Assembly (NCBI GenBank): GCA_041662665.1
Contig: JBAZSC010000003.1
Coordinates: forward strand, 76,333 to 140,332
Length of the DNA stretch: 64,000 bases
Direction of reading: 5' to 3'
DNA from: Patescibacteria group bacterium
GTDB lineage: Bacteria > Patescibacteriota > JABMPQ01 > JAQVVF01
Made by a program: the position numbers and the translations under genes. A model generated the notes under the pieces. It ran no database searches. It was given only the letters and a program-made list of their open reading frames with translations, and was not told the origin of the DNA. This document shows positions 4,895 to 60,109 of this stretch, piece after piece (the first letter of the stretch is position 1; the number at the start of each line of letters is the position of its first letter).

Positions 4895-5000
4895 TACTAA
4901 AGTTATAAAGTTTTTAAAGTTCATAAAGTAAAATTGTTAATTGCTAAATTGTTAGAATTATTTAACAATGGAACAATGGAACAATAAAACAATTTCGACT

Positions 5001-5900
5001 ATGAAACCTATCGAGCAAGATAAATTATTATTTCCAGAAATTCTAGCTCCCAGACCAAAAGAAGCTCACAAAAAATCTGTTGGCAGTGTGATGATTGTTG
5101 CTGGATCTGATGGGATGTCTGGAGCAGCAACTTTATGTTCTGAAGCAACAATGCGTGCTGGAGCTGGAATTGTGCTTTTGGCATTTCCAAAAAGTTTGTC
5201 TGAAATTTATACAAAATTAATTCCAGAAGTTTTGACATTGCCTTGCGATGAGACAAAAGAAAAAACTTTGGCATTGTCATCTTTAGATAAAATTTTGGAA
5301 GAAGCAAAAAAATACGATGTGATTTTGATTGGTCCAGGATTATCTCAAAATAATGAAACAAGAAAATTGATTTGTGAATTGTTTAAAAATCTAAAAAATT
5401 TGCATAAAAATGTGGTTTTAGATGCTGATGGATTAAACGCTATTGCTGGTCAAATAGAATTATTAGAAAAATTAGGTGATAACAAAACTATTTTATTGCC
5501 TCATGCTGGTGAGATGGCGAGATTAACAAATAAAGATGTTGATAATATTCAAAGAGATCGAGAATGGCTAGTTAGAAAAAAGGCAAAAGAATGGAAATGT
5601 GTTTTAGTGATAAAAGGTTATGAAACAGTTATTTCTGATGGTGAAAGAGTAATAATTAATAAATCTGGCGGACCGGAATTAGCAACTGCTGGAACTGGCG
5701 ATGCTTTGGCGGGCATGGTCGCTGCTCACTTTGCAGGAAATGTTAATCTGCCTTTTGAAGCAACTGCAACTGCTGTATATTTGCATGGTTTGGCTGGAGA
5801 TATGGTTAGCAAAAAGTTAGGTGAACGTTCTGTTTTGGCGACTGATGTGATAAATATGTTGCCTGAGGTAATAAAGAAAGTGTTAAATAAGTTAGACTAG
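5001..5900 (+). CDS. nnrD: ADP-dependent NAD(P)H-hydrate dehydratase (YjeF C-terminal / Nnr2 family)
   Basis: GSVMIVAGSDGMSGAA…GPGL…DADGLN…GGPELATAGTGDALAGMVAA motifs. The start is placed at an internal ATG (MKPIEQ) because the upstream part of the ORF overlaps an AACAATGG repeat array. Confidence 0.75.
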   Translation: MKPIEQDKLLFPEILAPRPKEAHKKSVGSVMIVAGSDGMSGAATLCSEATMRAGAGIVLLAFPKSLSEIYTKLIPEVLTLPCDETKEKTLALSSLDKILEEAKKYDVILIGPGLSQNNETRKLICELFKNLKNLHKNVVLDADGLNAIAGQIELLEKLGDNKTILLPHAGEMARLTNKDVDNIQRDREWLVRKKAKEWKCVLVIKGYETVISDGERVIINKSGGPELATAGTGDALAGMVAAHFAGNVNLPFEATATAVYLHGLAGDMVSKKLGERSVLATDVINMLPEVIKKVLNKLD

Positions 5901-5947
5901 TTAGATTGGTTAGACTTGTTATTAGTTAAATTGCTAAATTGTTAAAC
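5891..5947 (+). repeat. 9-bp-period GTTAGAYNN tandem array followed by an 8-bp ATTGYTAA array in the 3' intergenic region
   Basis: gttagacta gttagattg gttagactt gtta… attgctaa attgttaa. Confidence 0.7.
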
Positions 5948-5989
5948 TATTTTTTTGTTTCAATGTTTTAGTGTTTAAGTGTTTCTGTA

Positions 5990-6817
5990 ATGGCAAAGTT
6001 TTCAAAAACATTTTTTATTTATGAAGCTGTTTTATTTTTGATAACGCAGTTTTTGGGTTTGTATCTTGGCTGGCGGCTTTTTCAAATTGAAGAAGTAAAA
6101 GAATTAGTAGCGAAGCAGTCATATTCATTATGGCAATTTTTAATTGCATTTGCTGTTGGAACTGTAGTTGTTTTATTTGTAATAAAATATGCAAAAAGCA
6201 GAATAATATTTTCTGGCTTTTTTTATATTTTGATATTTTTGGGTTGTGTTGCTTTTTTTGATGTTTTTGCTTTAGGATATTTAGGATTGGGTTTGGCTTT
6301 GTTGGTTGTAATATTGCGAAGATTTATGCCTTCTGTTTTGACACATAATCTGGCAATTATTTTAGCAATTTCTGGAATTAGTTCGTATATTGGTTTGTCA
6401 TTTTTGCCTTTGCAAATAATTATTATGCTTGTTATTCTATCTATTTATGATTTTATTGCAGTTTTCAAAACTAAACATATGGTTTTGATGTTTAAAAAAA
6501 TGATGGAAAATGGCGCTAATTTGTCAATTATTGTACCTAATAAATTGATCGGTTTTTTGGCTGGAATGGATAAAGCAAAGCCAGGTCAAGATTTTATTTT
6601 TCTTGGAACTGGAGATTTGGCTTTTCCAATTATATTTGCTGTTTCAGTTTTAAGAAATAGTTTGTTAAGTTCGATTTTAGTGATTGCTGGAGCTTTGTTG
6701 GGAGTGATGGCAATAAATATCTATTTTTATTTTAAGAAAGAGAGAACTGCTTTTCCGGCATTGCCACCAATAACAATTGGCTGTATAATTGGATATCTGG
6801 TTTCATTATTTTTTTAG
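5990..6817 (+). CDS. Presenilin/signal-peptide-peptidase-like intramembrane aspartyl protease (A22 family homolog)
   Basis: Polytopic membrane protein with 'YD' (SIYDFIAV), 'GxGD' (LGTGDLAFP) and 'PAL' (FPALPPI) motifs in the canonical order and spacing (about 50 aa apart). Confidence 0.55.
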   Translation: MAKFSKTFFIYEAVLFLITQFLGLYLGWRLFQIEEVKELVAKQSYSLWQFLIAFAVGTVVVLFVIKYAKSRIIFSGFFYILIFLGCVAFFDVFALGYLGLGLALLVVILRRFMPSVLTHNLAIILAISGISSYIGLSFLPLQIIIMLVILSIYDFIAVFKTKHMVLMFKKMMENGANLSIIVPNKLIGFLAGMDKAKPGQDFIFLGTGDLAFPIIFAVSVLRNSLLSSILVIAGALLGVMAINIYFYFKKERTAFPALPPITIGCIIGYLVSLFF

Positions 6818-6826
6818 CTAAAAAAT

Positions 6827-7423: not shown

Positions 7424-7572
7424 AATGCGATAATATAAATGCGAGTTAAATAGATTAGACTGATTTGATAAAAAATAAAATTAATAAAATGTTTGATTGC
7501 TAGATTGTTGAATTGTTAAATTGTTAATAATTTAACAATGAAATAATTTAATAATTTATTGTAAATAATAAA

Positions 7573-9684
7573 ATGACAAAATTTAACAAAATTTTTATTT
7601 GGAGCGTTGTTTTTGTGTTAACAATTTTTGGCTTGGCTAATTTTAGCCAAGCTAGAACATGGACGCAAAGCGGGACAGATGGATTAGGAGATACAGCTAA
7701 TTGGAATTTCTATGGTTTTCAGACAATTGGCAATTCACTTTTTACGGGATCTTTGTATGTGGGTCCTGCTAATGGCGCTCAAGCTTTTACAACGTCAGAT
7801 GGATCAACTTGGGTTTCAGTTGATGCAACTGGTTTTGGAGATGGCAACAATTATTCTTATGGAGGCGGAAATACAACATTTAACAATAATGTTTATTTTT
7901 GTTTGAGAAATATTACAACTGGAGCAGAGGTTTGGTCAACATCAAATACTGGCGTTTTGTCTGCTTCACAAGTTAATGTGGATGGTTTTGGAGCTGGCAA
8001 TCAAAATGCTGATTGTTATTTCTTGAAAGAATATAAGGGTATTTTGTATGGCGGAACGGAAAATACAACTGCAGGAGGTCAAGTTTATGCTTATTCTAAT
8101 GGAACAACTTGGACACAAACAAATACTAATGGTTTTGGCAGTATTAATAACGATATTTTTTATTCAGGTGAGGTTTTTAAAAACTACTTATATGTTGGAA
8201 CACGCAATGCTACAACTGGCGGACAGATTTGGCGGACAGATGGAAGTACTTGGTCGCAGGTAACTGGCGATGCATTTGGAGTTGGCAATGCTAGTTATGG
8301 AATTATGACTCTGCAAACTTTTGGTAATTATCTTTATGCTGGTATTGCTAACAATGGCGGTGCGCAAATTTGGCGAACTAGCGATGGTGTTAACTGGACA
8401 AATACTGGTTTTAGCAGCACTTTTAGCTTGAGTATTCAAGGTATGTATGCAACTGACAATTTATTGTTTGCTGGGACCTCAAATCTTGGCAGTGGAGCAG
8501 GTGTTTTTGAAACAAGCGATGGTACAAATTGGATTCAAAATAATGTTGGAGGTTTTGGTACAAGCGGTATTATGGGCAATATTATAGTAAGGGGTATGGG
8601 GTTATTTGGCGATTATTTGTATGCTGGCGCATTTAAAGCTAATGGAGGTACAATTTGGAAAACCGATATAATTCCTCCGATTGTGACAGCTAGCCCAGAT
8701 AATAAAGCTTCTAGAAAAAAGATTAAAGTGACATTATCAAGCAATGACAGTTCAGGATCAATTTATTACACAACTGATGGTTCAATACCGACAACTGGAT
8801 CAAATTTGTATACTGGACAGATAACTTTTAAAAAGACTAAAATTTTAAAATTTATTGGTGTTGATACTGAAGGCAATGTGAGTTCAGTTCAAACGAAACA
8901 TTATGTTGTAACAAGCTATCCATATTTATATAATACTAACAAAGAATTGCGCGAGAAGAATGGGACAATAAAATTTTATAATATTTCAACTTCTAAATAT
9001 GGCAAGAAATTTAAGCCGTTTTCTTCTGGTTTGAAATATTTTACGGTTGCTGATCCAAATCAAGATAATAAGACAGAAATTATTGCAAATAATGGAAATG
9101 AAATTAAGTTTTATAATTCTAAAAGAAAGCTAAGATATACTTTGAAAAGTGCGAATGATTATTTAACATTTGGTGATATTAATAATAGCAAAAAAGAAAA
9201 AACTTTGATTGCAAAAGCTAAGACTTTAAAAATTTATAACAAGACAAGTTTAGAGAAAACATTTAATTTTTCAGAAAATATAAAAAGTATTGCAGTCGGC
9301 AGAGTATTGAAATATGATCAGCCTTTGATAATTGTTGGTTTTGATGATCAGATTAAATTATATAAATATAAAAATAAAAGTTTAGTTTTGAAAAAAACAA
9401 AGTCATTAAACTACAGTAAATTATTGGCTTATGATTTGGATACTAATGGAACTGATAACATTATTTATTCTAAAAACAAAAAAGTTTATGTATTAAATAA
9501 GAAGTTGAAGAAAAAGTTTTCTTTTAGCGCTGGCGGAAGTTTTTTAGCAGTAGCAGATGTCAATGATGACTATTTATTAGAAATTTTAGCAAGTACTGGA
9601 AAGAAATTAAAAACTTATTCAAATGAAGGAATTTTGTTGAATAGCAAAAAAGATAGCGGGAAATGGATTGGAGCAAGATTTTAA
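7573..9684 (+). CDS. Secreted modular repeat protein: signal peptide, Thr/Gly/Trp-rich beta-propeller-like repeats (…GGQIWRTxDGxxWTQ…GFG…), CHB_HEX_C-like domain, Lys-rich C-terminal region
   Basis: Signal peptide; iterated ~45-aa repeats; 'IYYTTDGSIPTTGSNLYTGQI…LKFIGVDTEGN' motif; basic C-terminal 300 aa. Confidence 0.65.
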   Translation: MTKFNKIFIWSVVFVLTIFGLANFSQARTWTQSGTDGLGDTANWNFYGFQTIGNSLFTGSLYVGPANGAQAFTTSDGSTWVSVDATGFGDGNNYSYGGGNTTFNNNVYFCLRNITTGAEVWSTSNTGVLSASQVNVDGFGAGNQNADCYFLKEYKGILYGGTENTTAGGQVYAYSNGTTWTQTNTNGFGSINNDIFYSGEVFKNYLYVGTRNATTGGQIWRTDGSTWSQVTGDAFGVGNASYGIMTLQTFGNYLYAGIANNGGAQIWRTSDGVNWTNTGFSSTFSLSIQGMYATDNLLFAGTSNLGSGAGVFETSDGTNWIQNNVGGFGTSGIMGNIIVRGMGLFGDYLYAGAFKANGGTIWKTDIIPPIVTASPDNKASRKKIKVTLSSNDSSGSIYYTTDGSIPTTGSNLYTGQITFKKTKILKFIGVDTEGNVSSVQTKHYVVTSYPYLYNTNKELREKNGTIKFYNISTSKYGKKFKPFSSGLKYFTVADPNQDNKTEIIANNGNEIKFYNSKRKLRYTLKSANDYLTFGDINNSKKEKTLIAKAKTLKIYNKTSLEKTFNFSENIKSIAVGRVLKYDQPLIIVGFDDQIKLYKYKNKSLVLKKTKSLNYSKLLAYDLDTNGTDNIIYSKNKKVYVLNKKLKKKFSFSAGGSFLAVADVNDDYLLEILASTGKKLKTYSNEGILLNSKKDSGKWIGARF

Positions 9685-9834: not shown

Positions 9835-10845
9835 ATGACAGACAGAAAACAGGTAGTTCTTTCAGGAATTAGAGCGACAGGACAAATGCATTTGGGCAAT
9901 TACCTTGGAGCAATGCGTCATTTTGTGGAATTAAGCAGAGATCCTAGCAAGCGATGTTTTTTCTTTGTGGCTGATTTGCACACATTGACGACTTTGAAAG
10001 ATCGGCAACAAATGGCAAAGCATTTGCCAAATATCGTTTTGGATTATTTGGCTGCTGGAATTGATCCTAGGGTTGCAACTTTGTATGCTCAGTCATCTGT
10101 GCCAGAAATTTCCGAGCTTTTTTGGCTATTGTGCAATTTTATGCCAGTTGCTGATTTGTTGCTTTGTCCGTCTTACAAGGATAAGGCGTCCAAGAATCCT
10201 CAAATTGCTGGTTTGTTGAATTATCCAATTCTGATGGCTGCTGATATTTTGGCTCCCAGAGGCGAATTGATTCCTGTCGGCCATGATCAAATTCCGCACG
10301 TTGAAATGGCAAGACAGATTGCTCGTGATTTTAATCGAGAGGTTGAAGAAGAGCTTTTTGTAATTCCAGAACATTTGGGTGGCGAATCAATTACTGTGAA
10401 GGGGTTGCATGGTGAAGGAAAGATGGGTAAAAGTGAAAAGCCGGATTCAACTATTTTCTTGACTGATAGCTATGATATTGTTTGGGGTAAATTGCGGACA
10501 GCAACTACTGATCCAGATAGGAAAAGAAGAAATGATCCAGGAAATCCAGCAGTTTGCAATGTATTTACTTTGCACACACTTTTGTCTCCAGATGAGAAAT
10601 TCCGAGAAATGGCCGAAGGTTGTCGAACTGCTTCGATTGGATGCATTGATTGTAAGAAAGAATTGATGATTCATTTGTGGAAATTGTTGGCTGAATTTCA
10701 AGCAAATCGCCAGCGAATTTTGCAGAATGGAGGCATTGATTATGTTAGGAATGTTCTGATTGAAGGTGGAAAAAATGCAAGGTCTGTGATTCAGTTTACT
10801 GTGCAAAGAGCACAAGAATTGATGGGTGTAGCAACTTATCTTTGA
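9835..10845 (+). CDS. trpS: Tryptophanyl-tRNA synthetase
   Basis: Class-I aaRS motifs HLGNYLGA (HIGH-like) and KMGKS (KMSKS). Strong SD GGAGAGGAGGG upstream of ATG 9835. G+C visibly higher than flanking genes. Confidence 0.9.
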   Translation: MTDRKQVVLSGIRATGQMHLGNYLGAMRHFVELSRDPSKRCFFFVADLHTLTTLKDRQQMAKHLPNIVLDYLAAGIDPRVATLYAQSSVPEISELFWLLCNFMPVADLLLCPSYKDKASKNPQIAGLLNYPILMAADILAPRGELIPVGHDQIPHVEMARQIARDFNREVEEELFVIPEHLGGESITVKGLHGEGKMGKSEKPDSTIFLTDSYDIVWGKLRTATTDPDRKRRNDPGNPAVCNVFTLHTLLSPDEKFREMAEGCRTASIGCIDCKKELMIHLWKLLAEFQANRQRILQNGGIDYVRNVLIEGGKNARSVIQFTVQRAQELMGVATYL

Positions 10846-12711: not shown

Positions 12712-13093
12712 AACTTAAAACTTTAAAAATCGTTGACCTGGAAAAAGTAAGTTAGTTATTTTTAAAAGTCTGCTTTCGCTAAAGCTACAGCAGACGAAGC
12801 GAATAAGGGATAGTGAGAGCCTTATAAAAATACTAGCTGAAAATGGATCCAGCGAGATGATAAGTTAAATACTTATCCGGTTGCCTCCGTAACCATAGGC
12901 TAACTGATATCTTGAATCCACCTTTGCTAAAGCTTCGGTGGACAAAGGAGTCAGTAAGTGATCAGTGTTTTTGCACTGATAAACAAGGTGGTAACACGGG
13001 AAGACTTCTCGTCCTTGAATACTTTTTAGAAGTATTTTAGGATGAGAAGTTTTTTGTTATGATCGATCTTTCACAACGCAAGGAGGAGAGAAG
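12712..13093 (+). promoter_or_regulatory. About 380-nt structured 5' leader of the RPH-like gene, containing two copies of the CCGCC-hairpin element and several other stem-loops
   Basis: Promoter TTGACT-N17/18-TATAAT at 12677-12708. Hairpins at 12769-12801, 12858-12882 and 12916-12950; a weak terminator-like hairpin at 13018-13040; SD AAGGAGGAG at 13080. Confidence 0.45.
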
Positions 13094-15619
13094 ATGAAAG
13101 TTCTATACCTGAGAAATCTGATGGGTTTGGAAGTGTCGCAGATTGGTGGCAAAGCATTTAATTTGGGCAAGTTAATTATGGCTGGATTTAATGTACCAAG
13201 TAGAGGTTTTGTGTTAGATGTGGATGTTTTGGACAGTTGGCCAAGTGGACGTGAAGAAGTAGCAGATTTTTTTGTAGATTATTTTGGTGGACAAGTCGTA
13301 GCTGTGAGAAGTTCAGCAGTAGCAGAAGATTCTGGATCAGCTTCTTTTGCTGGTCAGTACAAAACTACCTTGCATGTTAGGACTAGGGAAGAATTTTTGC
13401 GAGCAGTTGATGATTTCGTTGCTGGTTTGCTTGATGATGGCATTCAAGCATATCAGACAGTAGTTAAGCAGAAAGATTCAGGTCGACGGCAGGCAGCTTT
13501 GATTGTTCAGGAAATGGTTGAAGCAGAAATTGCTGGTGTGCTTTTTACGGTTAACCCACTCGATGGTTTGGACGAGATGATGATTACAGCAGCTTCTGGT
13601 ATTGGTGAGGCATTGGTATCTGGTCAGGTGACTGGAGATACATATGTTGTTGATAGAGATGGGATGCTCAAAAAGATGGTTATCGGCGGTGTAAAAAAAG
13701 ATTTGCGAGATGGTGTTGGCTTGATGACAAATAGAGATGTTGCTGAGAGAATTTTGGATGATAGTTTGCTGATGTATTTAGTAAAAATTGGCAAGCGGGT
13801 TGAAGAACTATTCCAATGTCCGCAAGATATCGAATGGGCAATTGTTGGTTCGCAGATTTTTTTGCTGCAAGCTCGACCAATTACGGCAATGTCTACTTTG
13901 GGTTTGCAGCGTCAAAAAGTTATTGATGATCTTGGAAATTCTTTTGAAAAAGAGAGAGCGAGATTGGAAGAGTTAGGTGTTGTATTGGCAACTGATTGTT
14001 TTTCTGATCAAAATATTGCTGAGCTTTTGACTCGTCATCCTACGCCAATGGCTTTTGGAGCATTCTGTTATATTTTTGCTGATGGCGAAGCTGGAATCCG
14101 GCTTGGTCGCAATCAAATGGGTTATGAGATTGGGTCAGAACTTGATCATGGTTTTTTCAGATTAGTTGGTGGTCAACCTCGTTGTAGTATTGTTCATGAT
14201 GCTTTTACTTATCGGATTGCTGGAATTCCGTTGTCGGATTATGCGATTTTGGTGAGATATTATTTGGAGAAAATTGCTGAAGATTCTAAAATGGCAAATT
14301 ATCCAGAAGTAGTGCTCTATAAGCAAGATCCGAGTTTGGAATTTCTGACAGAATTGTTTGGAGCAGAAAAAGCACAGTTCTATCGAGTGGCTTTTGATCG
14401 ATTTTTTACTGGATTAGCAGTGTTGATTGAGCAAACGGTGTTGGAGATGAAGACATTCGAAGATGATTTTAGGGCTTATATTGCAAGAGAGAAAGTCAAG
14501 ATGGAAAGTTTGGACATGAATCTTCAAGCTAATATTGCTCTATGCATGGAAATGTTTGATCATCTGCGAACTGTTGCTTGTGTGATGTTTGTTAAAGTTG
14601 CACGTTTGGGATTTTTTGCTTATGCACGACTTCGAGAAAAAATGGCATTGCATTATGGTAAAGAAAAGGGCGAGCAGTTGTTAGCAACATTAACTAGTGG
14701 ATTGGATAATGATCCGTCTTTGCATTTCAATGTTTGTTTGGCACAGTATCGTGATGGTCAAATCACTTTTTCTGAACTTTTGGAAAGATATGGTCATTTG
14801 GGTGCGAATGAACTAGAGGTTTCAGGATTGCGTTATCATGAAGATTCAAGTTTGTTGGAGCGTTACGCAGAACAGATTGCTGGAGATCCTCGTGTTGAAT
14901 TGGCACGCAGAAAGGCAGAATGTGATAAGGTTCGTGCAACTGTGGCAACGGAATTGGGAGAAGAAGTGGCTAGCTGGGTTGAGGTAGCGCGACAGTATTT
15001 GGCTGGTAGAGAATTAATCAAATATCTTTATTTGATGGAATATGATTTAGTTCGGCAAATGTTACTTAGAATCGAAAAGATTTTACATTGGGAAGATGAT
15101 TTGGTCTTCTGTCTTTATCCAGGAGAGATTCCAATGTTGCAATATGATAGCGAACGTATCCATAGAAAAGCAGTTGCGCGTTTGCAGCGTAGGCGTGAGC
15201 AAATGAATATCTATGTTCCGCCAGTAATTTTCTCTGATGATTTGGAGAGGATCGGTCAATCTCCATATCAAGCATCTGATAAGATTTTGACTGGCTTTGG
15301 AGTGACAGATCAGGTGGTGACTGGAGAGGTAGTTAAAGTGGCTGATCCAAGGGATAGAAAACAAATTGCCAAGCTTTTTGCAGGTTGTGTTCTAGTGACA
15401 ATGACAACTGATCCTTCTTGGGCCCCATTGATTGCAGCGATTGGTAGTAACGGTGGTTTGGTGACTGAGATTGGAGGTCCTTTGGCGCATGGGGCAATTG
15501 TAGCTAGAGAATTGGGAATTGGCGCTGTCTTGGATGTTACTGGAGCAATGCAGATTTTGCAGGATGGAATGAGAGTAGAGGTTAATGGTCCTTTGGGAGT
15601 TGTGAAGATTTTGGATTGA
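13094..15619 (+). CDS. PEP-utilising-enzyme family protein with PPDK-N ATP-grasp domain and C-terminal swivelling His domain (rifampin-phosphotransferase / PEP-synthase-like)
   Basis: N-terminus 'QIGGKAFNLGKL…GFNVPSRGFVL'; C-terminus 'LVTEIGGPLAHGAIVARELGIGAVL' (PEP-utilisers mobile-domain His); no PEP-binding TIM barrel; about 840 aa like the Rph family. Confidence 0.7.
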   Translation: MKVLYLRNLMGLEVSQIGGKAFNLGKLIMAGFNVPSRGFVLDVDVLDSWPSGREEVADFFVDYFGGQVVAVRSSAVAEDSGSASFAGQYKTTLHVRTREEFLRAVDDFVAGLLDDGIQAYQTVVKQKDSGRRQAALIVQEMVEAEIAGVLFTVNPLDGLDEMMITAASGIGEALVSGQVTGDTYVVDRDGMLKKMVIGGVKKDLRDGVGLMTNRDVAERILDDSLLMYLVKIGKRVEELFQCPQDIEWAIVGSQIFLLQARPITAMSTLGLQRQKVIDDLGNSFEKERARLEELGVVLATDCFSDQNIAELLTRHPTPMAFGAFCYIFADGEAGIRLGRNQMGYEIGSELDHGFFRLVGGQPRCSIVHDAFTYRIAGIPLSDYAILVRYYLEKIAEDSKMANYPEVVLYKQDPSLEFLTELFGAEKAQFYRVAFDRFFTGLAVLIEQTVLEMKTFEDDFRAYIAREKVKMESLDMNLQANIALCMEMFDHLRTVACVMFVKVARLGFFAYARLREKMALHYGKEKGEQLLATLTSGLDNDPSLHFNVCLAQYRDGQITFSELLERYGHLGANELEVSGLRYHEDSSLLERYAEQIAGDPRVELARRKAECDKVRATVATELGEEVASWVEVARQYLAGRELIKYLYLMEYDLVRQMLLRIEKILHWEDDLVFCLYPGEIPMLQYDSERIHRKAVARLQRRREQMNIYVPPVIFSDDLERIGQSPYQASDKILTGFGVTDQVVTGEVVKVADPRDRKQIAKLFAGCVLVTMTTDPSWAPLIAAIGSNGGLVTEIGGPLAHGAIVARELGIGAVLDVTGAMQILQDGMRVEVNGPLGVVKILD

Positions 15620-19821: not shown

Positions 19822-19868
19822 ATAAGTTCTAAAGTTTATAAAGTTATAAAGTTCATAAAGTAAATATA

Positions 19869-25244: not shown

Positions 25245-25294
25245 AAAATAAAAATTTAAAAATCAAAATGTAAAATGATAATTTAAAATTTAAA

Positions 25295-38605: not shown

Positions 38606-38620
38606 ATTTAATTAATTTCT

Positions 38621-40264: not shown

Positions 40265-40267
40265 ATT

Positions 40268-40345: not shown

Positions 40346-40376
40346 CCCTGCACTTAGCAGGGATTTTGGCAAAAAT

Positions 40377-41150: not shown

Positions 41151-41221
41151 CTTGCGAAAAGCTTGATATTCGGATATTATGATATTAAGCGGAAAGTTGT
41201 TTTTGTGTTTTTAGTGTTTAA

Positions 41222-49751: not shown

Positions 49752-49823
49752 ATTGTTGCTAAACTGTTAGTTTTTAAAATTTGGGAAATAAAAAAATCCA
49801 CATTAGTAGTGGATGAAAATGAA

Positions 49824-53236: not shown

Positions 53237-54184
53237 ATGAATAATTTTTTTGAAAAATGTGAGCGCGATATTAATTTGGCTGATCATACGACTTTCAAAA
53301 TTGGCGGGCCTGCTGATTATTTTTATATTGCAAAAAATCAAGAGGATTTGATTGAAGCTTTGAAATCAGTAAAAGAAGAAGGGATAAAATATTATGTTTT
53401 AGGAGGAGGAAGCAATGTTTTGGTTTCTGATGAAGGTTTTAGAGGATTAGTAATAAAAATAGAGCTAGATAATTTGGATATTAAAGAAAATATTATAATT
53501 GTCGGTGCTGGTGTTTCAGTTGGCAAAATTGTAAGCAAGGCTTTGGATAACAATTTGACTGGAATGGAATTTTTTACTGGCGTGCCTGGAACAATTGGTG
53601 GTGCGATTTTTGGCAATGCTGGAGCCTATGGAAGTGATGCTAGTAAAATTTTGAAAAGTGTCTCTTATTATGATGTAAATGCAGATAAGATAATTAAAAA
53701 AGAAATTAATAATCTTGATTTTTCTTATCGTTCAAGTGAATTTAAAAATGATAAAAATAAAATTGTTTTATCATGCGAAATTGAATTAAAAAAATCAGAT
53801 AGAAATAAAATTATTGCTGAAATGTCAGATATTGCAAAACAAAGAGGAACAAAGATTCCAAATGAGCCTAGCGCCGGTTCAGTTTTTAAAAATGTAACAA
53901 AAGATTTAACACAGATACTCAACAAATTAGACACAGATAACACAGATAAAATTAAATTTAAAAAGTATGGAAAAATTCCGGCTGCTTTATTGATTGAAAA
54001 AAGTGGATTAAAAGGAAGACAAGTTGGCGGAGCAAAAGTATCAGAAAAGCATACTAATTTTATTGTAAATATAGGTTTCGCAAAGGCAAAAGATGTGCTA
54101 GACTTAGTTGAAATAGTGAAAACTCAAGTTAAAATTAAATTTGGCGTTGAGTTAGAATTAGAGAATATATTGGTCGGGTTCTAA
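53237..54184 (+). CDS. murB: UDP-N-acetylenolpyruvoylglucosamine reductase
   Basis: 'TFKIGGPADYF', FAD-binding PCMH domain, 'GGGSN'. Confidence 0.85.
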   Translation: MNNFFEKCERDINLADHTTFKIGGPADYFYIAKNQEDLIEALKSVKEEGIKYYVLGGGSNVLVSDEGFRGLVIKIELDNLDIKENIIIVGAGVSVGKIVSKALDNNLTGMEFFTGVPGTIGGAIFGNAGAYGSDASKILKSVSYYDVNADKIIKKEINNLDFSYRSSEFKNDKNKIVLSCEIELKKSDRNKIIAEMSDIAKQRGTKIPNEPSAGSVFKNVTKDLTQILNKLDTDNTDKIKFKKYGKIPAALLIEKSGLKGRQVGGAKVSEKHTNFIVNIGFAKAKDVLDLVEIVKTQVKIKFGVELELENILVGF

Positions 54185-54200
54185 ATGTTGCATTAAATAA

Positions 54201-54265
54201 GTTAGATTAGTTAGATAGGTTAGACTGGTTATTTATAAATTGTTCAATTGTTAAATTGTTAATAT
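54201..54265 (+). repeat. GTTAGATNN array followed by ATTGTTAA array
   Basis: gttagatta gttagatag gttagactg gtta … attgttca attgttaa attgttaa. Confidence 0.65.
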
Positions 54266-54308
54266 TAATTTTGACAATTTAGCATTTTAACAATTAAACA
54301 ATTAAGTT

Positions 54309-54632
54309 ATGAAAATCACAATTTACCACAAAAAAATTGAATTAACGGACAAGCTTTATGATTATGTTCAGGAAAAAGTTGGCGGTTTAGAGCAATATAT
54401 TGACAATGTGATTGAATGCTTTGTAGAGTTAGACGAAGATACATCAATGAAATCAGGCAAAAAATTCAGATGCGAAGTGCAAATGAAAGTTCCAAGATCT
54501 TCCATTAGAGCTGAAGAAATTGCCTATGATATTTTTGAAGCAATTGATCTTGTAATTCCAAAATTAACTAAACAAATTGAAAAATACAAAGGTACTAGAA
54601 GTCATCCGAGGGGAATAAAAAGTTTGAATTAG
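54309..54632 (+). CDS. hpf: Ribosome hibernation promoting factor / RaiA family
   Basis: 'MKITIYHKKIELTDKLYDYVQEKV…' S30AE-family signature. Confidence 0.75.
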   Translation: MKITIYHKKIELTDKLYDYVQEKVGGLEQYIDNVIECFVELDEDTSMKSGKKFRCEVQMKVPRSSIRAEEIAYDIFEAIDLVIPKLTKQIEKYKGTRSHPRGIKSLN

Positions 54633-54654
54633 TTTTTATAAAAATATTTTAATT

Positions 54655-54775
54655 TTGAGAATTTAGAATTTAGAATCTGGAATCTAGAATAGAATAGAGA
54701 ATTTGGAATAAAATAATTCTCATTTTACTTTCTAATTCTATTCAAAATTCTAGATTCAAGATTCTAGATTCTTAA
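54655..54775 (+). repeat. About 120-bp imperfect palindrome of 7-bp AATYTAG units (tagaatctggaatctagaatagaatag … ctattcaaaattctagattcaagattctagattc)
   Basis: Inverted arrays directly upstream of the secA ATG. Confidence 0.6.
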
Positions 54776-54779
54776 TTTT

Positions 54780-57536
54780 ATGGCATTTGATTTTTTTAAA
54801 AAAATATTTGGTGATCCAAATAAACGAGTTGTTGATCAGCTCGCTCCAATAGTTTCGCAAATTAATTCTTTGGAATCAGGTTTGAAAGATTTGTCAGCTG
54901 AAGAATTAAAATCTAGAACAAAAAAATTAAAAGATGAATTAAAAAATGGCAAGACTTTAGACGATATTTTGCCTGAGGCTTTTGCTTTAGTTCGAGAGGC
55001 TTCCAGAAGAACGACAAAAATGAGACATTTTGATGTTCAGCTTTTGGGTGGAATTGTTCTTCATCAAGGAAAAATATCAGAAATGAAAACTGGTGAAGGA
55101 AAAACTTTGGTGGCAACATTGCCATTATATTTGAATGCATTGTCAGGCAAAGGCTCTCATTTAATTACTGTTAATGATTATTTGGCAAGAAGAGATACAG
55201 TATGGATGGGGCAGATTTATGATGCTCTTGGATTAAGTGTTGGTTGTATTCAGCATGAACAGGCTTTTGTTTACGATTCTCAATATAGCAAAAAGAATAA
55301 TGAATCAGGAATAATGAATAATGAAGAACTTGATGAAGAAAGAGATGAAATGGGAAGTTTTAAAGTATTCCATGAATATCTAAGACCAGTTTCTAGAAAA
55401 GAAGCATATAATGCTGATATTACTTACGGAACAAATAATGAATATGGTTTTGATTATTTGAAAGATAATATGGTTGCAGAGCTTGCTGAAAAAGTTCAAA
55501 GAAATTTGAATTTTGCAATTGTTGATGAAGTTGACTCTATTTTGATTGATGAAGCAAGAACTCCGTTGATTATTTCTGCTCCAGCAGAAGAAGCAGTTGA
55601 TATGTATAATCAATTTGCAAGCTTGATTCCAAAATTAAAAGAAAATGAAGATTACAATATTGATGAAAAAATGCGGGCAGCAACTTTGACAGATAAAGGA
55701 ATCGCAAAGCTTGAAAAAATGTTGGGATTGCAGAATATTTATGAAGAAAAAGGAATAGAAATTGTCCATCATATTGAACAAGCTTTGAAAGCGCATACTT
55801 TGTTTAAAAGAGACAAAGATTATGTTGTAAAAAATAATGAAGTAATAATTGTTGATGAATTTACTGGCAGATTAATGCCTGGCCGTAGATTTTCTGAAGG
55901 TTTGCATCAAGCGTTGGAAGCAAAAGAAAACGTGGCGATTCAGCGAGAATCAAGAACATTAGCAACAATTACATTTCAAAATTATTTTAGAATTTATAAA
56001 AAATTAGCTGGCATGACTGGAACTGCGGCAACATCAGCTGAAGAATTTTCAAAAGTTTATAAATTGGATGTTGTTATAATTCCAACCAATAAACCATTAA
56101 TACGTGAGGATTTAAATGATTTGGTTTATAAATCAGAATTAGGAAAATATATTGCTGTAGTTAAAGATGTAAAAGAAAGAAATAAAAAAGGTCAGCCAGT
56201 TTTGATTGGTACGATTTCAATTGAAAAAAATGAGAGATTAGGACAAATGTTGCAAGACGAAGGAATTATATGCAATGTTTTAAATGCAAAGAACCATGAA
56301 AAAGAAGGCGAGATAATTGCTCAAGCTGGTAGATTAAATGGCGTGACAGTTGCAACAAACATGGCAGGTCGCGGTGTTGATATTATTTTGGGTGGAGTGC
56401 CTTTGAATAAAGAAGAAGCAGAAAAAATTAAACAATTAGGTGGTCTTCATGTTATTGGAACAGAAAGGCATGAAGCAAGAAGAATAGATAATCAGCTTCG
56501 AGGTAGAGCTGGACGTCAAGGCGATCCTGGTTCTTCACAATTTTTTGTGTCAATGGAAGATGATTTGATGAGAATTTTTGGTTCTGACAGAATGAAAAAA
56601 ATGATGGATACTTTGAAATTGCCAGAAGATCAGCCAATTGAACATGGATTAATCTCAAAATCAATTGAAGCAGCTCAAAATAAAGTTGAAGGAAATAATT
56701 ATGATATTAGAAAACATGTTTTGGAATATGATGATGTGATGAATAAACATCGGGAAGTCATTTATAAAAAGCGTAATGCGATACTTGATGCTTGGGAACG
56801 AGAAAAAAGGGAAATAGGAAACAGAAAACAGGAAACAGGAAAAGAAATGCAAACTTTGAAAAGTATTATTTTAGAATATATTGAAGATGAAATTGAGCAA
56901 ATTGTAACAAATCATACTGGTACAGAAGATGTTGAGAATTGGAATTGTGAAGAAATTTATGAATCTGTAAAAACTATTTTTCCAGTATCGCAAGATATTC
57001 ATCTTGAATTGGAAAATTTAGCAAAAAAAGCTGGCAATGAAAAAAATGGAGCTGAAGCAAGAACGATAATTATTGATTATCTTTTTGATTTGGCAAGGAA
57101 AGCTTATGATGCGAAAGAAAAAGAAAATGGTGAGGAAGGAATGAGGCAAATCGAAAGAGCTGTTTTGCTTCGAACTATTGATTCTTTGTGGATGGATCAT
57201 TTGGATGCAATGGAATATATGAGAGAGGGAATTGGCTTGCGAGGTTTTGGACAAAGAGATCCATTAGTTGAATATAAAAAAGAAGCATTTGGAATGTTTG
57301 GTGCTTTGTTGGCAGAAATTCAAAATAGAGTTGTTTATACTATTTATAAAGTTGGAATTGTGACACAACAAGTATCGCCAATGCAAAAAGCAAAACAACA
57401 AATGCAAACTTCAGGCGCGGAAAAAGGTGAAGATTCTAAAACTTTGCCAGAGCACTCTAGCAAAATTGGAAGAAATGATCCGTGTATTTGTGGAAGTGGG
57501 AAAAAATACAAGCACTGTTGCGGAAAAAACAAATAG
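54780..57536 (+). CDS. secA: Preprotein translocase ATPase SecA (with C-terminal zinc-binding tail)
   Basis: DEAD-like motor motifs, 'MAGRGVDI', C-terminal [14 protein letters not shown]; contains the low-complexity insert at 56815-56844. Confidence 0.95.
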
Positions 57537-57565
57537 AAATTCGGAAATTATGAAATTCGGAAATT

Positions 57566-57660
57566 TCTACCCAACTTCAGTTGGGGTTAGGTGAACTTTA
57601 GTTCACGGACGACGAAAAACTAAAGTTTTTTTGACCCCAACTGAAGTTGGGTAGGGTACT
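57566..57660 (+). repeat. MITE-like inverted-pair version of the two-hairpin element (ctacccaacttcagttggggt … accccaactgaagttgggtag); likely also the secA terminator
   Basis: 21-nt perfect terminal inverted repeats flanking gtgaac/ttta/gttcac and an A/T run. Confidence 0.65.
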
Positions 57661-57697
57661 CTAAAAATCAAAATAAAAAAACGAACGTGGAAGTTCG

Positions 57698-58039
57698 TTA
57701 TGCGGAAAGTGCTTTGAAGACAATTCTTGCGTAGTAAGAGCAGACGATTGTAGGTGGAATATCATCTGTGCCATCATTTTTTGTAATTCTGCTATATCTT
57801 TCAAGCTGAACAGTAAAATGATTGAAGGGTGGACTGGAAAGTAAATCATTTGCTGTAGATTGGACCAGATTGCTACATTTTTCTATTCCTCTATCAGATC
57901 GTTCCATAAAACAGATTTCTGCAACTACTCGATTATTTGCAGAACAATTCTTAGCGTGGTTGGCAATTTTTGCAGCAGTTTCCATGATACGCCAAATAGG
58001 CATACCTTCGCAAACAATATAAGTTTTTTCCTCTTGCAT
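57698..58039 (-). CDS. Hypothetical protein (113 aa), high-GC strong-SD orphan
   Basis: AAGGAGGAGAAAAAG upstream of the minus-strand ATG at 58039. Confidence 0.4.
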   Translation of the reverse strand: MQEEKTYIVCEGMPIWRIMETAAKIANHAKNCSANNRVVAEICFMERSDRGIEKCSNLVQSTANDLLSSPPFNHFTVQLERYSRITKNDGTDDIPPTIVCSYYARIVFKALSA

Positions 58040-58155
58040 TTTTCTTTTTCTCCTCCTTGTTGTCCTCTTTCGAGGAAGGTGCGAATAATTTAGTATATTA
58101 TTTTATTACGAAAAGACAAGAGATTTTAAAAATCTAAACAACAAAATTAATATTT

Positions 58156-59874
58156 ATGTCAATACATGATCGGATATTGCGGATATTAGATATTCGGATA
58201 TTAGGTGGTTTGATTTTGGTTGTTTTTTTGTTTTCTTGTTTCTTTGTTTTGAATGCAAATGCGTCCAACTACATTCAGCCAGAAATAAAAGTTTATTCTG
58301 ATTATGGAGATAAAATAGATGCTGATTTTTTGGCATTTGACAAGAATTTTAAAGGCGGAGCATATCCAGCAATTGGCGATATTAATAATGATGGAAAAGA
58401 TGAAATTGTGATTGGCGCTGGATATGGTGGCGGGCCGCAAGTTAGAATTTTTGATAAATTGGGAAATTCAACTGGCATTAATTTCTATGCATTTGAAAAA
58501 GAATATACTTCAGGTGTTGATGTTGCTGTTTGTAATTTAGATAATAAAGGTAGAAATGAAATTGTTGTTGGCAAAGCACTTGAAGATAGAAGCGATATTG
58601 CAATCTATAAAATTAGTAAAAAAAATAAAATTAATAAGCTGACTTCTTTTACGGCTTATGATGAAAGTTTTGAAGGTGGAGTGAATATTTCATGTTCGGA
58701 TTTAAACAATGATAAAAGAGATGAAATTGTTACTTCACCTGGACCTTCTGGTCGTAGTCATATCAGAACTTTTAAATATTTGGCAAAGAAAAAAGAAGTT
58801 GTTGATTTTGGATTATCTTTTTTTGCATTCAATGACGATTTTGAAGGCGGAGCAACTGTCAGTGCTTATAATGGCAAAATAATTGTTGGACAAGCGACAG
58901 GAGGAAATTTGGTTTATGTCTATGAAGTGAATCGCAAAGATGTAAGAAAGTTTTCAAAATTAGGAATGCTTGATAAGTTAGCGCCGAAATTTGTTAGAAA
59001 AATTAATGCATTTAAAAATTTTAAAGGAGGAGTTAATGTTTCAATTGGAAAATTGGATTCTGGCAAGGCAAAAATTTTGGTATCGCCAGCTTCTAATGGC
59101 GGTCCAACAATTCAAATTTTTAATTTAAAAGGAAAGCTATTAAAAAATTTTAGCGCCTATTCAGGTGATTTTAAAGGCGGCGTAAGAATTGCGAATCTCA
59201 CGAATGGCAAGCCCACAAATAACTCAAATGATAAACAGAAGGATTATGATTTTGTTGTTGCTCCAGGATTTAAATTGGGAATTAAATGTGAAAGAAATTG
59301 CGTGGCTTTAACTCTTGATGACGGCTATACTTCAGCAAGTGGATCGTTCGATCGAATTTTGGATACATTAAAATATAAAAAAGTTCATGCGACATTTTTT
59401 ATGCTAGGTACTGTAATGCAACAATATCCAGACAGGATGAAAAGATTAAGTGATGAAGGGCATCAACTAGCAAATCATAGTTTTTCACACGCTGATTTTA
59501 CAAGATTATCAAGCGCACAAATTATTAATGAAATTACTTATACTAATCAAATAGGTGAAAGTATAACTGGCAAGCCGACAAAACCTTATTTTCGTTATCC
59601 TGGTGGCAGTCATAATGCTTCAACTGATGCAATTGTAAAAAATTTAGGTTATAAGTATTTTGGATGGACAGCATCTGCAGGAGATACAGGATCAAATGTT
59701 ACAGTACAATCAGCAACCTTTGGCATGCTTTGGAATTTGCATGATGGTTCAATAATTCTGGGACACACAATGAAAGATGCAACTGCAGGAGCTTTGCCAA
59801 CTGTTATTGATGCAATCAGAAATGCTGGATTTACATTAGCGACTCTTGATGAAATGAGTTCATATTGGAAATGA
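58156..59874 (+). CDS. Secreted FG-GAP-repeat protein with C-terminal NodB-type polysaccharide deacetylase (CE4) domain
   Basis: N-terminal TM/signal; 'GDINNDGKDEIV' FG-GAP repeats; CE4 motifs 'LTLDDGY', 'HATFFMLG', 'GHQLANHSFSH'. Confidence 0.7.
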   Translation: MSIHDRILRILDIRILGGLILVVFLFSCFFVLNANASNYIQPEIKVYSDYGDKIDADFLAFDKNFKGGAYPAIGDINNDGKDEIVIGAGYGGGPQVRIFDKLGNSTGINFYAFEKEYTSGVDVAVCNLDNKGRNEIVVGKALEDRSDIAIYKISKKNKINKLTSFTAYDESFEGGVNISCSDLNNDKRDEIVTSPGPSGRSHIRTFKYLAKKKEVVDFGLSFFAFNDDFEGGATVSAYNGKIIVGQATGGNLVYVYEVNRKDVRKFSKLGMLDKLAPKFVRKINAFKNFKGGVNVSIGKLDSGKAKILVSPASNGGPTIQIFNLKGKLLKNFSAYSGDFKGGVRIANLTNGKPTNNSNDKQKDYDFVVAPGFKLGIKCERNCVALTLDDGYTSASGSFDRILDTLKYKKVHATFFMLGTVMQQYPDRMKRLSDEGHQLANHSFSHADFTRLSSAQIINEITYTNQIGESITGKPTKPYFRYPGGSHNASTDAIVKNLGYKYFGWTASAGDTGSNVTVQSATFGMLWNLHDGSIILGHTMKDATAGALPTVIDAIRNAGFTLATLDEMSSYWK

Positions 59875-59906
59875 GAAATGGGATATGGGAAGTGAGAAAA
59901 TAGATA

Positions 59907-59983
59907 TTCTACCCTGCCCATGGCAGGGGTACGTGAATTTTTTGTAGTAACTTTTAAAAACCCTTGCCGTGGGCAAGGTAGAA
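59907..59983 (+). repeat. Inverted-pair two-hairpin element (tctaccctgcccatggcagggg … cccttgccgtgggcaaggtaga)
   Basis: Terminal inverted repeats of about 22 nt, each itself a hairpin. Confidence 0.6.
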
Positions 59984-60109
59984 GCTAACTATTGAATACT
60001 GAATATTTTTGTGCTATTATGATATTGTAAGAAAAAAGTTAGACTAGTTAGACTAGTTAACTATTTTCTGTTTTCTATTTACTATAAATTAATTAAATTA
60101 TAAATAACT

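Follow-up and report, generated by a model that had tools for sequence, protein, structure and literature searches.

Most of the spacers between co-directional genes in a 64-kb stretch of DNA from a Patescibacteria bacterium (assembly GCA_041662665.1, contig JBAZSC010000003.1; the whole stretch is called the window hereafter) are built from short, head-to-tail arrays of 7-9-nt units, and about half of the array sequence is arranged as an array followed by its inverted copy, forming a predicted hairpin. This repeat feature is real, statistically robust and systematic, and the arrays are gained, lost and changed quickly between related genomes. They are best filed as a variant, in candidate phyla radiation (CPR) bacteria, of the known phenomenon of long simple sequence repeats (SSRs) and heptamer repeats, with an unusual multi-family and hairpin organization. 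The explanation we favor, at roughly even odds (a probability of about 0.5), is that the arrays are slippage-born long SSRs with 7-9-nt units that are kept as intercistronic spacers and leaders of genes lacking a Shine-Dalgarno (SD) site.

CPR bacteria are uncultivated organisms with tiny genomes and few recognizable regulators, and both the organization of their transcription units and the way in which they start translation are little understood. Short arrays of 7-9-nt words, some of them mirrored into long hairpins, lie in front of about half of the SD-less genes studied here, and if functional they would represent a new kind of intercistronic signal. If they are products of slippage only, they would sensitively report on an abnormal mutational regime in these lineages, namely a deficiency of replication or repair, and would be a source of new protein loops, as in SecA. 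The arrays are also a simple sequence signature by which such lineages can be recognized, and they matter for gene calling and assembly.

Periodicity of the intergenic DNA

In the 44 intergenic regions of the window (8,247 bp), exact 6-mers recur 55, 58 and 90 times at lags of 7, 8 and 9 bp, respectively, as against a mean of 8-9 per lag (standard deviation 4.4, maximum 25) in 200 dinucleotide-preserving shuffles, a 6-10-fold excess. Coding DNA scaled to equal length gave 8-11 recurrences per lag. The multiples at lags 14, 16 and 18 were likewise enriched, no excess was seen in intergenic DNA at lags 10, 11, 13 and 17, and the raised values at lags 6, 12, 15 and 21 stem from a single (TTC)n tract. 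An earlier note on this DNA, made from the sequence alone, had described the arrays as a systematic and unusual organization and had named equal periodicities in shuffled intergenic sequence as what would refute it; the periodicity is absent from the shuffles, and the organization is indeed systematic and non-random. Tandem Repeats Finder (TRF) also detects arrays of period 7-9 at or next to every position that the note had named.

Arrays are concentrated outside of genes, with a density of 75.8 bp/kb in non-coding DNA versus 6.1 bp/kb in coding DNA (12-fold). Under lenient detection, 29 of the 39 co-directional spacers of at least 25 bp bear an array (shuffles: mean 13.7, maximum 24), and 26.5% of spacer bases are covered by arrays, compared with 5.7% in shuffles. 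The earlier statement that almost every spacer is affected thus holds for most spacers, about three quarters of them, under lenient detection but is overstated, the fraction being roughly half when detection is strict.

Three of the unit families named earlier were counted. GTTAGAYNNGTTAGAY has 15 matches where 0.04 are expected (5882-5915, 31216, 38538-38603, 40269-40302, 54201-54225 and 60038), ATTGTTNAATTGTT has 14 matches on both strands versus 1.2 expected (4940-4993, 7504-7539 and 54239-54302), and TAAAGTTNNTAAAGTT has six versus 0.2 (4906, 19830 and 36366/36419). The 8-bp ATTGTTRA and 9-bp GTTAGAY families of the earlier note are both present, but they are not cleanly separate, as they grade into each other in the GTTA register at 5891-5950. 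At least eight unrelated unit families coexist within the 64 kb, and the arrays appear to span a range of ages, from perfect copies (GTTAGACTA in the window; ATTACTC x4 in the related locus L048) down to about 70% identity with degenerate edge units. The arrays are not an assembly artefact, because three other samples yielded five contigs that match the window at 100% identity across approximately 30 kb, one single-nucleotide polymorphism aside.

Placement, composition and folding

The window has a GC content of 31-32% and a constant GC skew of about +0.3, and all of its genes except three are on the + strand. Pfam annotation of about 50 open reading frames (ORFs) returned ordinary housekeeping genes, including those for a PPIase, a class-I tRNA synthetase, an ABC transporter, lexA, dinB and a glutaredoxin, a long cell-wall and division cluster (dacA, mraY, ddl, ftsQ, mur ligases, ftsW, murG and murB), and hpf, secA and secDF. 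The SecA gene occupies 54780-57536, and its best relatives are found among Patescibacteria metagenome-assembled genomes. Integrases, transposases and Nop-domain proteins were not found among the ORFs scanned, and the observation that the arrays follow housekeeping genes with no integrase present is upheld. Rfam matches at gathering score in the window were limited to three tRNAs and one T-box leader, with no known RNA family matching the arrays, and E-value scans of 54150-54800 and 57520-57700 gave only sub-threshold matches to miRNA hairpins.

Arrays typically start 0-20 nt past a stop codon and end 0-13 nt before the next start, so that spacers of 45-150 bp are 50-100% array. Their earlier placement right after stop codons, in 3' intergenic DNA, is therefore correct as to where they begin but too narrow, since they usually fill the spacer and abut the next start. 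Two architectures occur, namely C-poor direct arrays and arrays joined to an inverted copy. Direct-only arrays, which include TAAAGTT, most GTTAGAY, AAATAAC and GATATT, are about 80% A+T, with a sense-strand C content of 5.1% versus 12.6% in other non-coding DNA, and their spacers are predicted to be no more structured than shuffles (folding z of -0.9 to +1.7). In eight other spacers (7424, 24812, 32165, 33397, 36810, 38517, 54185 and 54633), array and inverted array are predicted to form AU- and G.U-rich hairpins of 36-63 pairs and 60-170 nt that span nearly the whole spacer, with z of -3.5 to -8.1, which bears out the large palindromes of the earlier note.

The arrays are also strand-specific. 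Recurrence of GTTAGA at 7-9 bp was seen in six spacers, and recurrence of TAAAGT in three, all of them on the + strand, with no case of either on the - strand. In 8 of 10 spacers, predicted folding is better for the sense than for the antisense strand (53 versus 19 G.U pairs), a bias that is suggestive only, because the strong GC skew would give the same asymmetry.

An SD site (GGAGG) precedes 5 of 50 genes, leaving 45 (90%) without one, and none of the five (0/5) has an array upstream. SD sites are often found instead behind what may be called classical spacers (10846, 11960, 12631, 21982, 22873, 27390, 28607, 29396, 47551 and 48084), which combine a terminator of GC stem and T run with a TTGACW-N16-18-TAnnnT promoter located 35-47 nt upstream of the start codon. 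The strong GGAGG genes are at 22183-22872, 28199-28606, 29030-29395, 47676-48083 and 13094; four of the five encode small proteins for which Pfam has no match, and each of these four is served by a consensus promoter and a GC-stem terminator of its own. These are probably the region's highly expressed genes.

A generic promoter scan does not discriminate in such AT-rich DNA (90-112 sites versus 76-93 expected), and a consensus derived from the organism was used (TTGACW or TTGAAT, N16-18, TAnnnT). Consensus promoters and canonical terminators are confined to the classical spacers; array spacers have neither, the sole exception being a promoter at 59992. The arrays were rejected as sigma-70 promoters, as the stricter consensus matches non-array spacers only, and by inspection the spacing of GTTAGAC/TAGACT is incompatible with -35/-10 geometry. 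They were likewise rejected as intrinsic terminators (a short GC stem and a U-tract), scans for which match classical spacers only, the array hairpins being AU-rich and 6 of 8 lacking a T run. From this lack of promoter and terminator signals we infer that array spacers are intercistronic, in which case the arrays would be transcribed inside polycistronic mRNAs.

Comparison with relatives

SecA of the window is 89% identical to that of relative L001 in the best tblastn segment (90% over the full alignment), 84% to that of L002 and 74% to that of L003, while other relatives (Falkow-, Komeili-, Uhr-, Magasanik- and Kuenenbacteria) are near 60%. Orthologous spacers differ strongly among these genomes. 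Between hpf and secA, the window has a 147-bp palindrome of AATTCTAG, L001 a different 91-bp AT palindrome, L002 a 93-bp GC-hairpin element, and L003 only 15 bp. The spacer before murB is 18 bp in the window, 54 bp with a GTTAGAY-type array in L001, and 124 bp in L002, and that between the mur ligase gene and ftsW is 19 bp in the window, 9 bp in L001, and a 156-bp palindrome in L002. By comparison, two other sequences are conserved in the window, L001 and L002, namely the promoter-like cTTGAATattgaatatttttgtgcTATTATgatgttgtaagaa of 43 nt and the spacer between secD and secF. As arrays turn over while these two sequences are kept, the array sequence at a given locus is not under comparable constraint.

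Downstream of the conserved promoter, each of the three genomes has an array of another family (GTTAGAC x2 in the window, GTTAGGC/GTTCGGT in L001, and ATTGTTAC x3 in L002). At least in this orthologous trio, the arrays would thus sit in the 5' leader, judging from the position of the promoter-like sequence. A further difference was seen between murB and hpf, where L001 (8997-9576) and L002 (9007-9574) have a minus-strand gene of 131-141 aa; the window (54185-54308) is without that gene and carries a composite of a GTTAGAY array and an ATTGTT hairpin in its place.

Arrays of 7 nt are also found within coding sequence, in both variable loops of SecA, where the units are GAATAAT and AAACAGR in the window, AAATCCY and ACAAATW in L002, and AAATCCY in L003. 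The L002 array (10509-10567) encodes NPKSQILNPKQITNNKLQN, and its two unit types are those of the intergenic palindrome at 33397 in the window; the L003 array is at 4482-4555. Because the SecA loop arrays carry different units in each genome, repeat DNA is evidently recruited into protein loops.

An equal architecture built of unrelated units is pronounced in L026 (Kuenenbacteria), L027, L048 (Uhrbacteria, 50% GC), L001 and L002; in L048, for example, GCGTAAT x4 and ATTACTC x4 lie directly before an ATG. Over 79 Patescibacteria loci, the median excess of recurrences per kb is 0.55, compared with 3.1 in the window and 10.2 in L026, and most loci are weak or have none. AT-richness alone is insufficient to produce arrays, because L036, at 33% GC, has none. 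Among L001-L163, GTTARRY arrays were found in L001 only, besides the window genome, and were absent from L002-L163 (approximately 2 Mb). Exact 7-mer sharing between the window and its relatives is near zero, so that the vocabulary common with L001 and L002 rests on visible but degenerate arrays.

Additional relatives were sought by several routes. Exact-protein look-ups for strain variants returned only contigs 100% identical to the window (for the PPIase, one contig of 2.5 kb) and gave no entry for SecD, a metagenome scan with Ddl for closer relatives gave matches of at most 54% identity, and an HPF homology search yielded 13 relatives with no new close ones among them. In viral contigs, GTTAGAY x3 occurs at 81 loci, either as giant-virus coding repeats of three amino acids (LSN, KSN or LDK) or as phage origin-like iterons. 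These viral triplets were rejected as relatives of the window arrays, being coding repeats or GGTTAGACW iterons beside a primase-helicase gene. One such intergenic region, in phage contig L183 of IMG/VR (8150-8450), has GGTTAGACW x3 direct repeats at 9-bp spacing together with several inverted GTCTAACC copies by its primase-helicase gene, and about 20 other viral loci are alike. The region resembles an origin of the iteron type, and the match of its unit and spacing to the GTTAGAY arrays of the window is probably coincidental.

Origin and possible roles

On the favored explanation, slipped-strand replication or short tandem duplication would create and resize the arrays, fold-back or template-switch copying would make the inverted arm of the hairpins, and a family would spread within its lineage when one of its arrays is now and then copied to another junction. 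The arrays would then persist where selection tolerates them, that is, between co-directional genes and in variable surface loops such as those of SecA, both of which are places where they are observed. Once in place, they would serve SD-less genes as 5' leader and as the region where translation is initiated; unfolded direct arrays would provide an open, A/U-rich landing site, the base of a hairpin would bring the stop codon of the upstream gene near the start codon of the downstream gene, and the hairpins may additionally have a part in processing or stability. What selection appears to act on are generic properties, such as composition, strand and structure, and not the sequence of any single locus.

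Several observations weigh against this explanation. Over about 30 kb and approximately 20 arrays, no copy-number difference was seen between the near-identical contigs (five contigs, probably of one clone), and with arrays invariant in identical contigs active slippage is not demonstrated. Some sequences are common to distant loci; GTTAGACTAGTTAGA occurs at 5891, 31216 and 60038, GTTAGACTGGTTA at 38556, 40278 and 54219, and a composite of about 115 nt can be aligned between 5876-5992 and 54186-54311. This composite runs from TTAAATAA through (GTTAGAYNN)3, GTTATT and (AAATTGTT)3 to a loop, then the inverted arm and finally the ATG, where it ends, and looser versions are found at 7440 and 4890. 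Independent local slippage cannot explain strings and a composite common to several loci, and a copying step or selection for the motif is needed. In 25 GTTAGAYNN units, the mismatches per position are 2, 0, 0, 0, 6, 2, 12, 10 and 13 (chi-square p = 2e-7, partly ascertainment-biased), which suggests constraint on the GTTAGA core, with variation nearly confined to positions 7-9. Together with strand specificity, the core and the composite argue against a purely neutral view, and the strict strand specificity would fit both a function at the RNA level and a replication bias. Finally, the association of arrays with the absence of an SD site is a trend (Fisher p = 0.07), and the intercistronic assignment has missing consensus signals as its one line of evidence.

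A bolder version of the functional idea is speculative, and we hold it to be fairly unlikely. It proposes that repeat-built spacers functionally replace SD-based operon architecture here and, independently, in Kuenenbacteria- and Uhrbacteria-type relatives. C-poor direct arrays would be multivalent docking sites, either for the ribosome itself or for some abundant S1- or Csp-like factor that binds RNA, hairpins spanning the spacer would juxtapose stop and start codons for coupled re-initiation, and the unit families would co-evolve with the factor and be spread by a copying mechanism.

It is conceivable, though rather doubtful, that the arrays are instead binding platforms for one or more abundant proteins, either at the RNA level (S1-, Csp- or CsrA-like) or at the DNA level, where they would be cooperative binders like ribbon-helix-helix proteins on omega heptads or MetJ metboxes, and that they form a lineage-specific post-transcriptional or nucleoid network replacing SD control. 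A conserved GTTAGA core with a variable 2-3-nt linker, identical units in 6-7 spacers and always on the sense strand, and arrays adjoining the start codons of SD-less genes are what such platforms would look like, and the leader behind the conserved promoter has an array in all three genomes, albeit of differing families. A network hypothesis put forward for TAACTGA repeats offers a precedent (PMC4679880), and the phage iterons described above indicate that arrays of this spacing can be protein sites. What speaks against the idea is the number of unrelated unit families, the wholly different units of other lineages with equal architecture, and the absence of GTTARRY arrays from L002-L163. Arrays moreover come and go at orthologous junctions whose flanking genes are unchanged, with spacers ranging from 9 to 156 bp; similar arrays lie within the coding loops of SecA; the downstream genes share no functional theme; and Pfam scans of the window revealed no candidate binding protein. 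Unit families that are lineage-specific and arrays that are not kept at orthologous sites argue against a conserved, site-specific regulator. The hairpin spacers, for their part, could be primarily functional RNA structures, either factor-independent terminators or attenuators suited to a genome rich in AT, or else sites for RNase III processing and for stability that keep cistrons apart, with direct arrays as half-elements. Their folding scores, the better folding of the sense strand through G.U pairs, the T7 runs after two of them (24812-24990 and 33397-33505), and the presence of a hairpin of differing sequence at the hpf-secA junction of both the window and L001 are consistent with this. 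We nevertheless consider it unlikely, given that six of the eight hairpins have no U-tract and end 1-16 nt before the next start, which leaves no room for a downstream promoter, that ordinary GC-stem/T-run terminators exist elsewhere in the genome, that L003 manages with 15 bp between hpf and secA, that the G.U asymmetry is expected from the GC skew, and that about half of the arrays are direct-only and unstructured.

A mobile origin appears distinctly unlikely. The arrays and palindromes would in that case be small non-autonomous elements, mobilized in trans by a transposase from elsewhere in the genome and similar to miniature inverted-repeat transposable elements (MITEs), repetitive extragenic palindromic (REP) sequences or REPINs, that insert between genes and at times in frame, like Rickettsia palindromic elements. 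The composite of about 115 nt is found at two loci at least, families are lineage-specific (GTTAGAY in the window genome and L001 only), whole palindromes are present or absent at orthologous junctions (e.g., 156 bp in L002 versus 9-19 bp), related units occur within the SecA coding sequence of L002 and L003, and a GC-rich hairpin in the TAAAGTT array at 36382-36418 indicates that insertion of small elements does happen in this genome. On the other hand, Pfam scans of the window found neither a transposase nor a REP-associated tyrosine transposase (RAYT); terminal inverted repeats are missing from direct arrays, and target-site duplications that would convince were not seen. Copies vary in their number of units and combination of modules and have no defined length, and the eight hairpins are of about five types unrelated in sequence, whereas REPINs and MITEs form populations of a master sequence. 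The earlier suggestion of decayed mobile-element ends is not supported, there being no transposase remnants in the window and no signature of terminal inverted repeats with target duplications. A relation to integrons can practically be dismissed. GTTAGAC and GTTAGAT fit the attC core consensus GTTRRRY, and nothing else recommends them as attC sites or remnants; the cores stand in tandem every 9 bp and are unpaired with an inverse core (four RTCTAAC on the + strand, none of them 40-140 nt upstream of any GTTAGAY), no integrase is encoded among the roughly 50 ORFs scanned, and the flanking housekeeping genes are syntenic with L001 and L002. Neither an inverse core RYYYAAC and core GTTRRRY flanking an imperfect palindrome of 57-141 bp nor intI with cassettes was found, and the likeness is coincidental, as the earlier note had suspected. 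It is also very improbable that the arrays are intrinsically curved spacer DNA or a mere by-product of low GC content. They are about 80% A+T, but repeats at 10-11 bp are not in excess, the autocorrelation of AAA/TTT at lags 10-11 shows a deficit (z = -2.1), the observed counts are never reached by dinucleotide-preserving shuffles, and L036 is AT-rich without arrays; the bent DNA that the earlier note had entertained is therefore not supported.

Relation to known repeat systems

Prokaryotes have long SSRs with units of 5-11 nt, among which heptamers dominate, in patchy abundance, and the origin proposed for them is polymerase slippage (Mrazek et al. 2007, as reviewed in PMC4679880 and PMC4692102). 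The window arrays are like them in their head-to-tail 7-9-nt units, strongly intergenic location, patchy phylogeny and fast change between relatives. They differ in being short (2.5-6 copies) and imperfect, in occurring as many families together, often with an inverted copy, in filling most co-directional spacers of a tiny genome, and in showing no length polymorphism among the five identical contigs, which are probably one clone.

Another parallel is provided by the TAACTGA repeats of marine Beggiatoaceae, some Cyanobacteria and Bacteroidetes, which are located just upstream of start codons in SD-poor leaders, where binding of S1, Csp or a CsrA-like protein has been proposed; they occur as 2-6 forward-oriented copies of a single heptamer that dominates across phyla (PMC4679880). 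Both systems have forward direct repeats within a few nt of start codons, SD-less leaders, no functional theme downstream and occasional copies in ORFs. Unlike TAACTGA, the units of the window are 7, 8 or 9 nt long, their families are lineage-specific, and about half form hairpins with an inverted array; tandem TAACTGA was not found in the window even with two mismatches allowed. Heptamer arrays are further known as STRR in heterocystous cyanobacteria, GGGGAYT in Nostoc and GGGAATC in Xanthomonas, some of them as inverted pairs and with strong variation between close relatives (PMC4692102). These, too, are intergenic arrays with inverted pairs able to form stem-loops and with variation in length and sequence at one intergenic position, but the cyanobacterial and Xanthomonas repeats are G-rich, quadruplex-capable and often long (up to 26 units), unlike the A/T-rich, C-poor and short arrays of the window.

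REP, BIME and REPIN sequences and MITEs are small extragenic modules that form mosaics of a few types, include hairpin-forming inverted pairs, and are lineage-specific. The AT-rich arrays differ from them in lacking defined ends and a single master sequence, and neither a RAYT nor a transposase was seen in the window. A better analogue is a separate, dispersed family of GC-richer intergenic elements of the form CTACC(C/T)RRCTTYAGYYGGGGT..NNAACTTTAGTTNN, found at 1310-1375, 3430-3495, 34630-34695 and 57560-57665, the last being an inverted doublet, and at 7972-8040 of L002. Each member is a pair of neighboring hairpins whose CTTYAG loops are conserved and whose stems show compensatory changes between copies (CCCAAC/GTTGGG versus CCTGGC/GCCAAG), without an Rfam match, and the two inverted copies at 57560-57665 form a REPIN-like hairpin of 90 nt whose enclosing spacer has z = -9.9. 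Further GC-rich hairpins, such as CCGCCTTCGCT..GCTACGGCGG and CCCTGC..GCAGGG, are located at 36382-36418, 12770-12800, 12915-12945, 40345-40368 and 59905-59985; the one at 36382 is an insertion, because it lies in the middle of a TAAAGTT array that is unbroken at 4896 and 19824.

Operator arrays of ribbon-helix-helix proteins (omega-protein heptads and the 8-bp metboxes of MetJ) are contiguous 7-8-bp units, direct or inverted, that are read cooperatively, a binding mode for which periods of 7-9 bp are typical; they sit at a few promoters together with the cognate regulator gene. The window arrays occur throughout, with many unrelated units, away from recognizable promoters, and with no ribbon-helix-helix gene nearby. 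Tandem repeats of Borgs, which are archaeal extrachromosomal elements, are described as recently formed (PMC9879509). They resemble the present arrays in arising both between and inside genes, in giving low-complexity or disordered protein segments (here, the SecA loops) and in evolving rapidly and independently at each locus, and they differ in that the window units are 7-9 nt, mostly degenerate and on a bacterial chromosome. TIGR-Tas systems have long arrays of 36-nt dual-repeat, dual-spacer units beside a Nop-domain Tas gene (PMC12045711), and a TIGR array was rejected, as the window units are 7-9 nt, in at most six copies, and dispersed, with no Nop-domain protein found by Pfam. A CRISPR array (24-48-nt repeats with unique spacers of similar length) was also rejected, since TRF finds none in the window and the short-period units are contiguous. 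In the literature searched on intergenic repeats, mismatch repair and SD usage in CPR bacteria and Patescibacteria, no description of such arrays was found.

Individual arrays

Direct arrays are given here on the + strand, and palindromes and hairpins built of inverted copies are without strand. The first array, of AAAATAACA/AAATAAC (1235-1274, by TRF), directly follows the stop of the gene at 139-1236 and belongs to a 30-mer family seen also at 24163, at 14519 in L001 and at 16059/17634 in L002. The gene at 3812-4894 encodes a bacterial archaeo-eukaryotic release-factor-like protein (baeRF family 10 with eRF1 domain 3), and 2 nt past its stop there is a TAAAGTT-type array of about four TAAAGTTNN copies (4896-4930), the spacer 4895-4967 being predicted to be unstructured (z = +1.7). 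It is succeeded by an imperfect hairpin of a AAATTGTT array and an inverted AACAATGG array (4931-4996), with copies on both strands, before the start that is probable at 5003. In several cases the start called for the longest ORF lies within an array, for example the ATG at 4968 in the AACAATGG arm, where 5003 is more plausible. A four-unit GTTAGAYNN array (5882-5921) overlaps the end of the gene at 4968-5900, its second unit (5891-5899) holding the last coding bases and the TAG stop (5898-5900). Next come three GTTAAATT and four TGTTTNAG units (5923-5988), which end 1-4 nt before the ATG at 5990 and whose halves pair only through G.U (seven pairs), giving a predicted hairpin on the sense strand only (dG of -9.0 on the + strand versus -1.6 kcal/mol on the - strand). 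At 7445-7560, degenerate GTTAAATAG/ATTAGACTG units precede four ATTGTTNA units and their inverted copy, a hairpin (z = -4.9) that ends about 10 nt before the ATG at 7573. A TAAAGTT array (19824-19862) makes up nearly the whole of a 47-bp spacer within the ABC-transporter gene cluster.

The region 24200-26647 is a compact SOS-type module of lexA, a heptamer palindrome, an 81-aa ORF without a Pfam match, and a Y-family polymerase gene (dinB), in which every internal spacer is array-built. A AAATAACA array (24163-24199, by TRF) ends at the lexA start codon, the palindrome of about 180 nt (24812-24990, z = -5.1), with arms of AATTTCT and AGAAATT heptamers and a T7 run after it, separates lexA from the small ORF and dinB, and an AAAATNN array with 7-bp (also 13-14-bp) period (25245-25297) covers 100% of the 50-bp spacer before dinB. 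Breaks of independent short-read assemblies fall in this palindrome, where L245 begins (24923), and in the (TTC)n tract, where Logan contig L247 ends (1456).

In and around the cell-wall cluster, three GTTAGAYNN and 3.8 TTTTATAT units (31216-31274) end 5 nt before the ATG at 31280. A palindrome with CTCTAAA/TTCTAAA in its left arm and TTTAGAT in its right arm (32159-32296, z = -5.4) spans the dacA-mraY spacer, and one of AAATCCC and ACAAATW units followed by a T7 run (33397-33510, z = -4.1) lies between mraY and ddl. The TAAAGTT array split by the 36-bp GC-rich hairpin insertion (36363-36434) fills the spacer from ftsQ to the next gene, and a TACAAAT/TACGAAT array with its inverted copy forms a hairpin at 36810-36880 (z = -3.5). 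Four GTTAGAYNN units and an inverted TAACTNATY array (38538-38618, z = -8.1) give a near-perfect hairpin of 36 pairs that ends 2 nt before the ATG at 38621. Five GTTAGAYNN units precede 3.3 ATTGATAAA units at 40265-40341, and three GATATTNN units precede three of TGTTTTTAG/TTTAAGTG at 41165-41235, running into the start of a Mur ligase gene; the GATATTCGG family occurs also at 7944 in L002. A ATTGTTNA array (49730-49775) overlaps the last codons and the stop of murG, and an AGAAAAC x5 array (51165-51203) lies in the 3' coding part of a murC-like gene.

Behind the murB stop, four GTTAGAYNN units (54192-54231) form the first module of the composite element also present at 5882-5988, and three AAATTGTT units with three inverted ACAATTWA units form a hairpin (54236-54305, z = -3.7) that ends 3 nt before the hpf ATG. 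A 120-nt palindrome of AGAATTT/AATTCTAG heptamers (54654-54773, z = -7.2) spans the hpf-secA spacer. Within secA, the coding arrays are GAATAAT x4.4 in variable loop 1 (55295-55329) and AAACAGR with 7-bp (also 21-bp) period in variable loop 2 (56801-56847), and a GAAATTCG x3.8 array (57536-57565) overlaps the stop codon. About 17 nt downstream of the conserved promoter-like TTGAAT-17-TATTAT (59992-60020), approximately 2.4-3 copies of GTTAGACTA are followed by CTATTTT x3.6 (60037-60085), and a degenerate GTTATTCA/GTTAGGTAA/GTTAAATAA array precedes secD (61535-61562).

Other features of the window

The T-box leader (12724-13019, 99.8 bits) precedes a gene at 13094-15619 with PPDK_N and PEP-utilizing mobile domains, an unusual target in that it is not an aminoacyl-tRNA synthetase, transporter or biosynthetic gene. 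The 809 bp of non-coding DNA at 27390-28198 has two consensus-like promoters (27447 and 27894) and GC-rich segments, with no ORF and no Rfam match at gathering score, and may encode an uncharacterized RNA. Finally, a perfect (TTC)14.7 microsatellite (1427-1470) lies directly upstream of an extended -10-like TGGTATAAT and of a gene for a 600-aa surface-type protein (1528-3330) with coding repeats of 141 bp, and this tract looks like a slipped-strand phase-variation switch.

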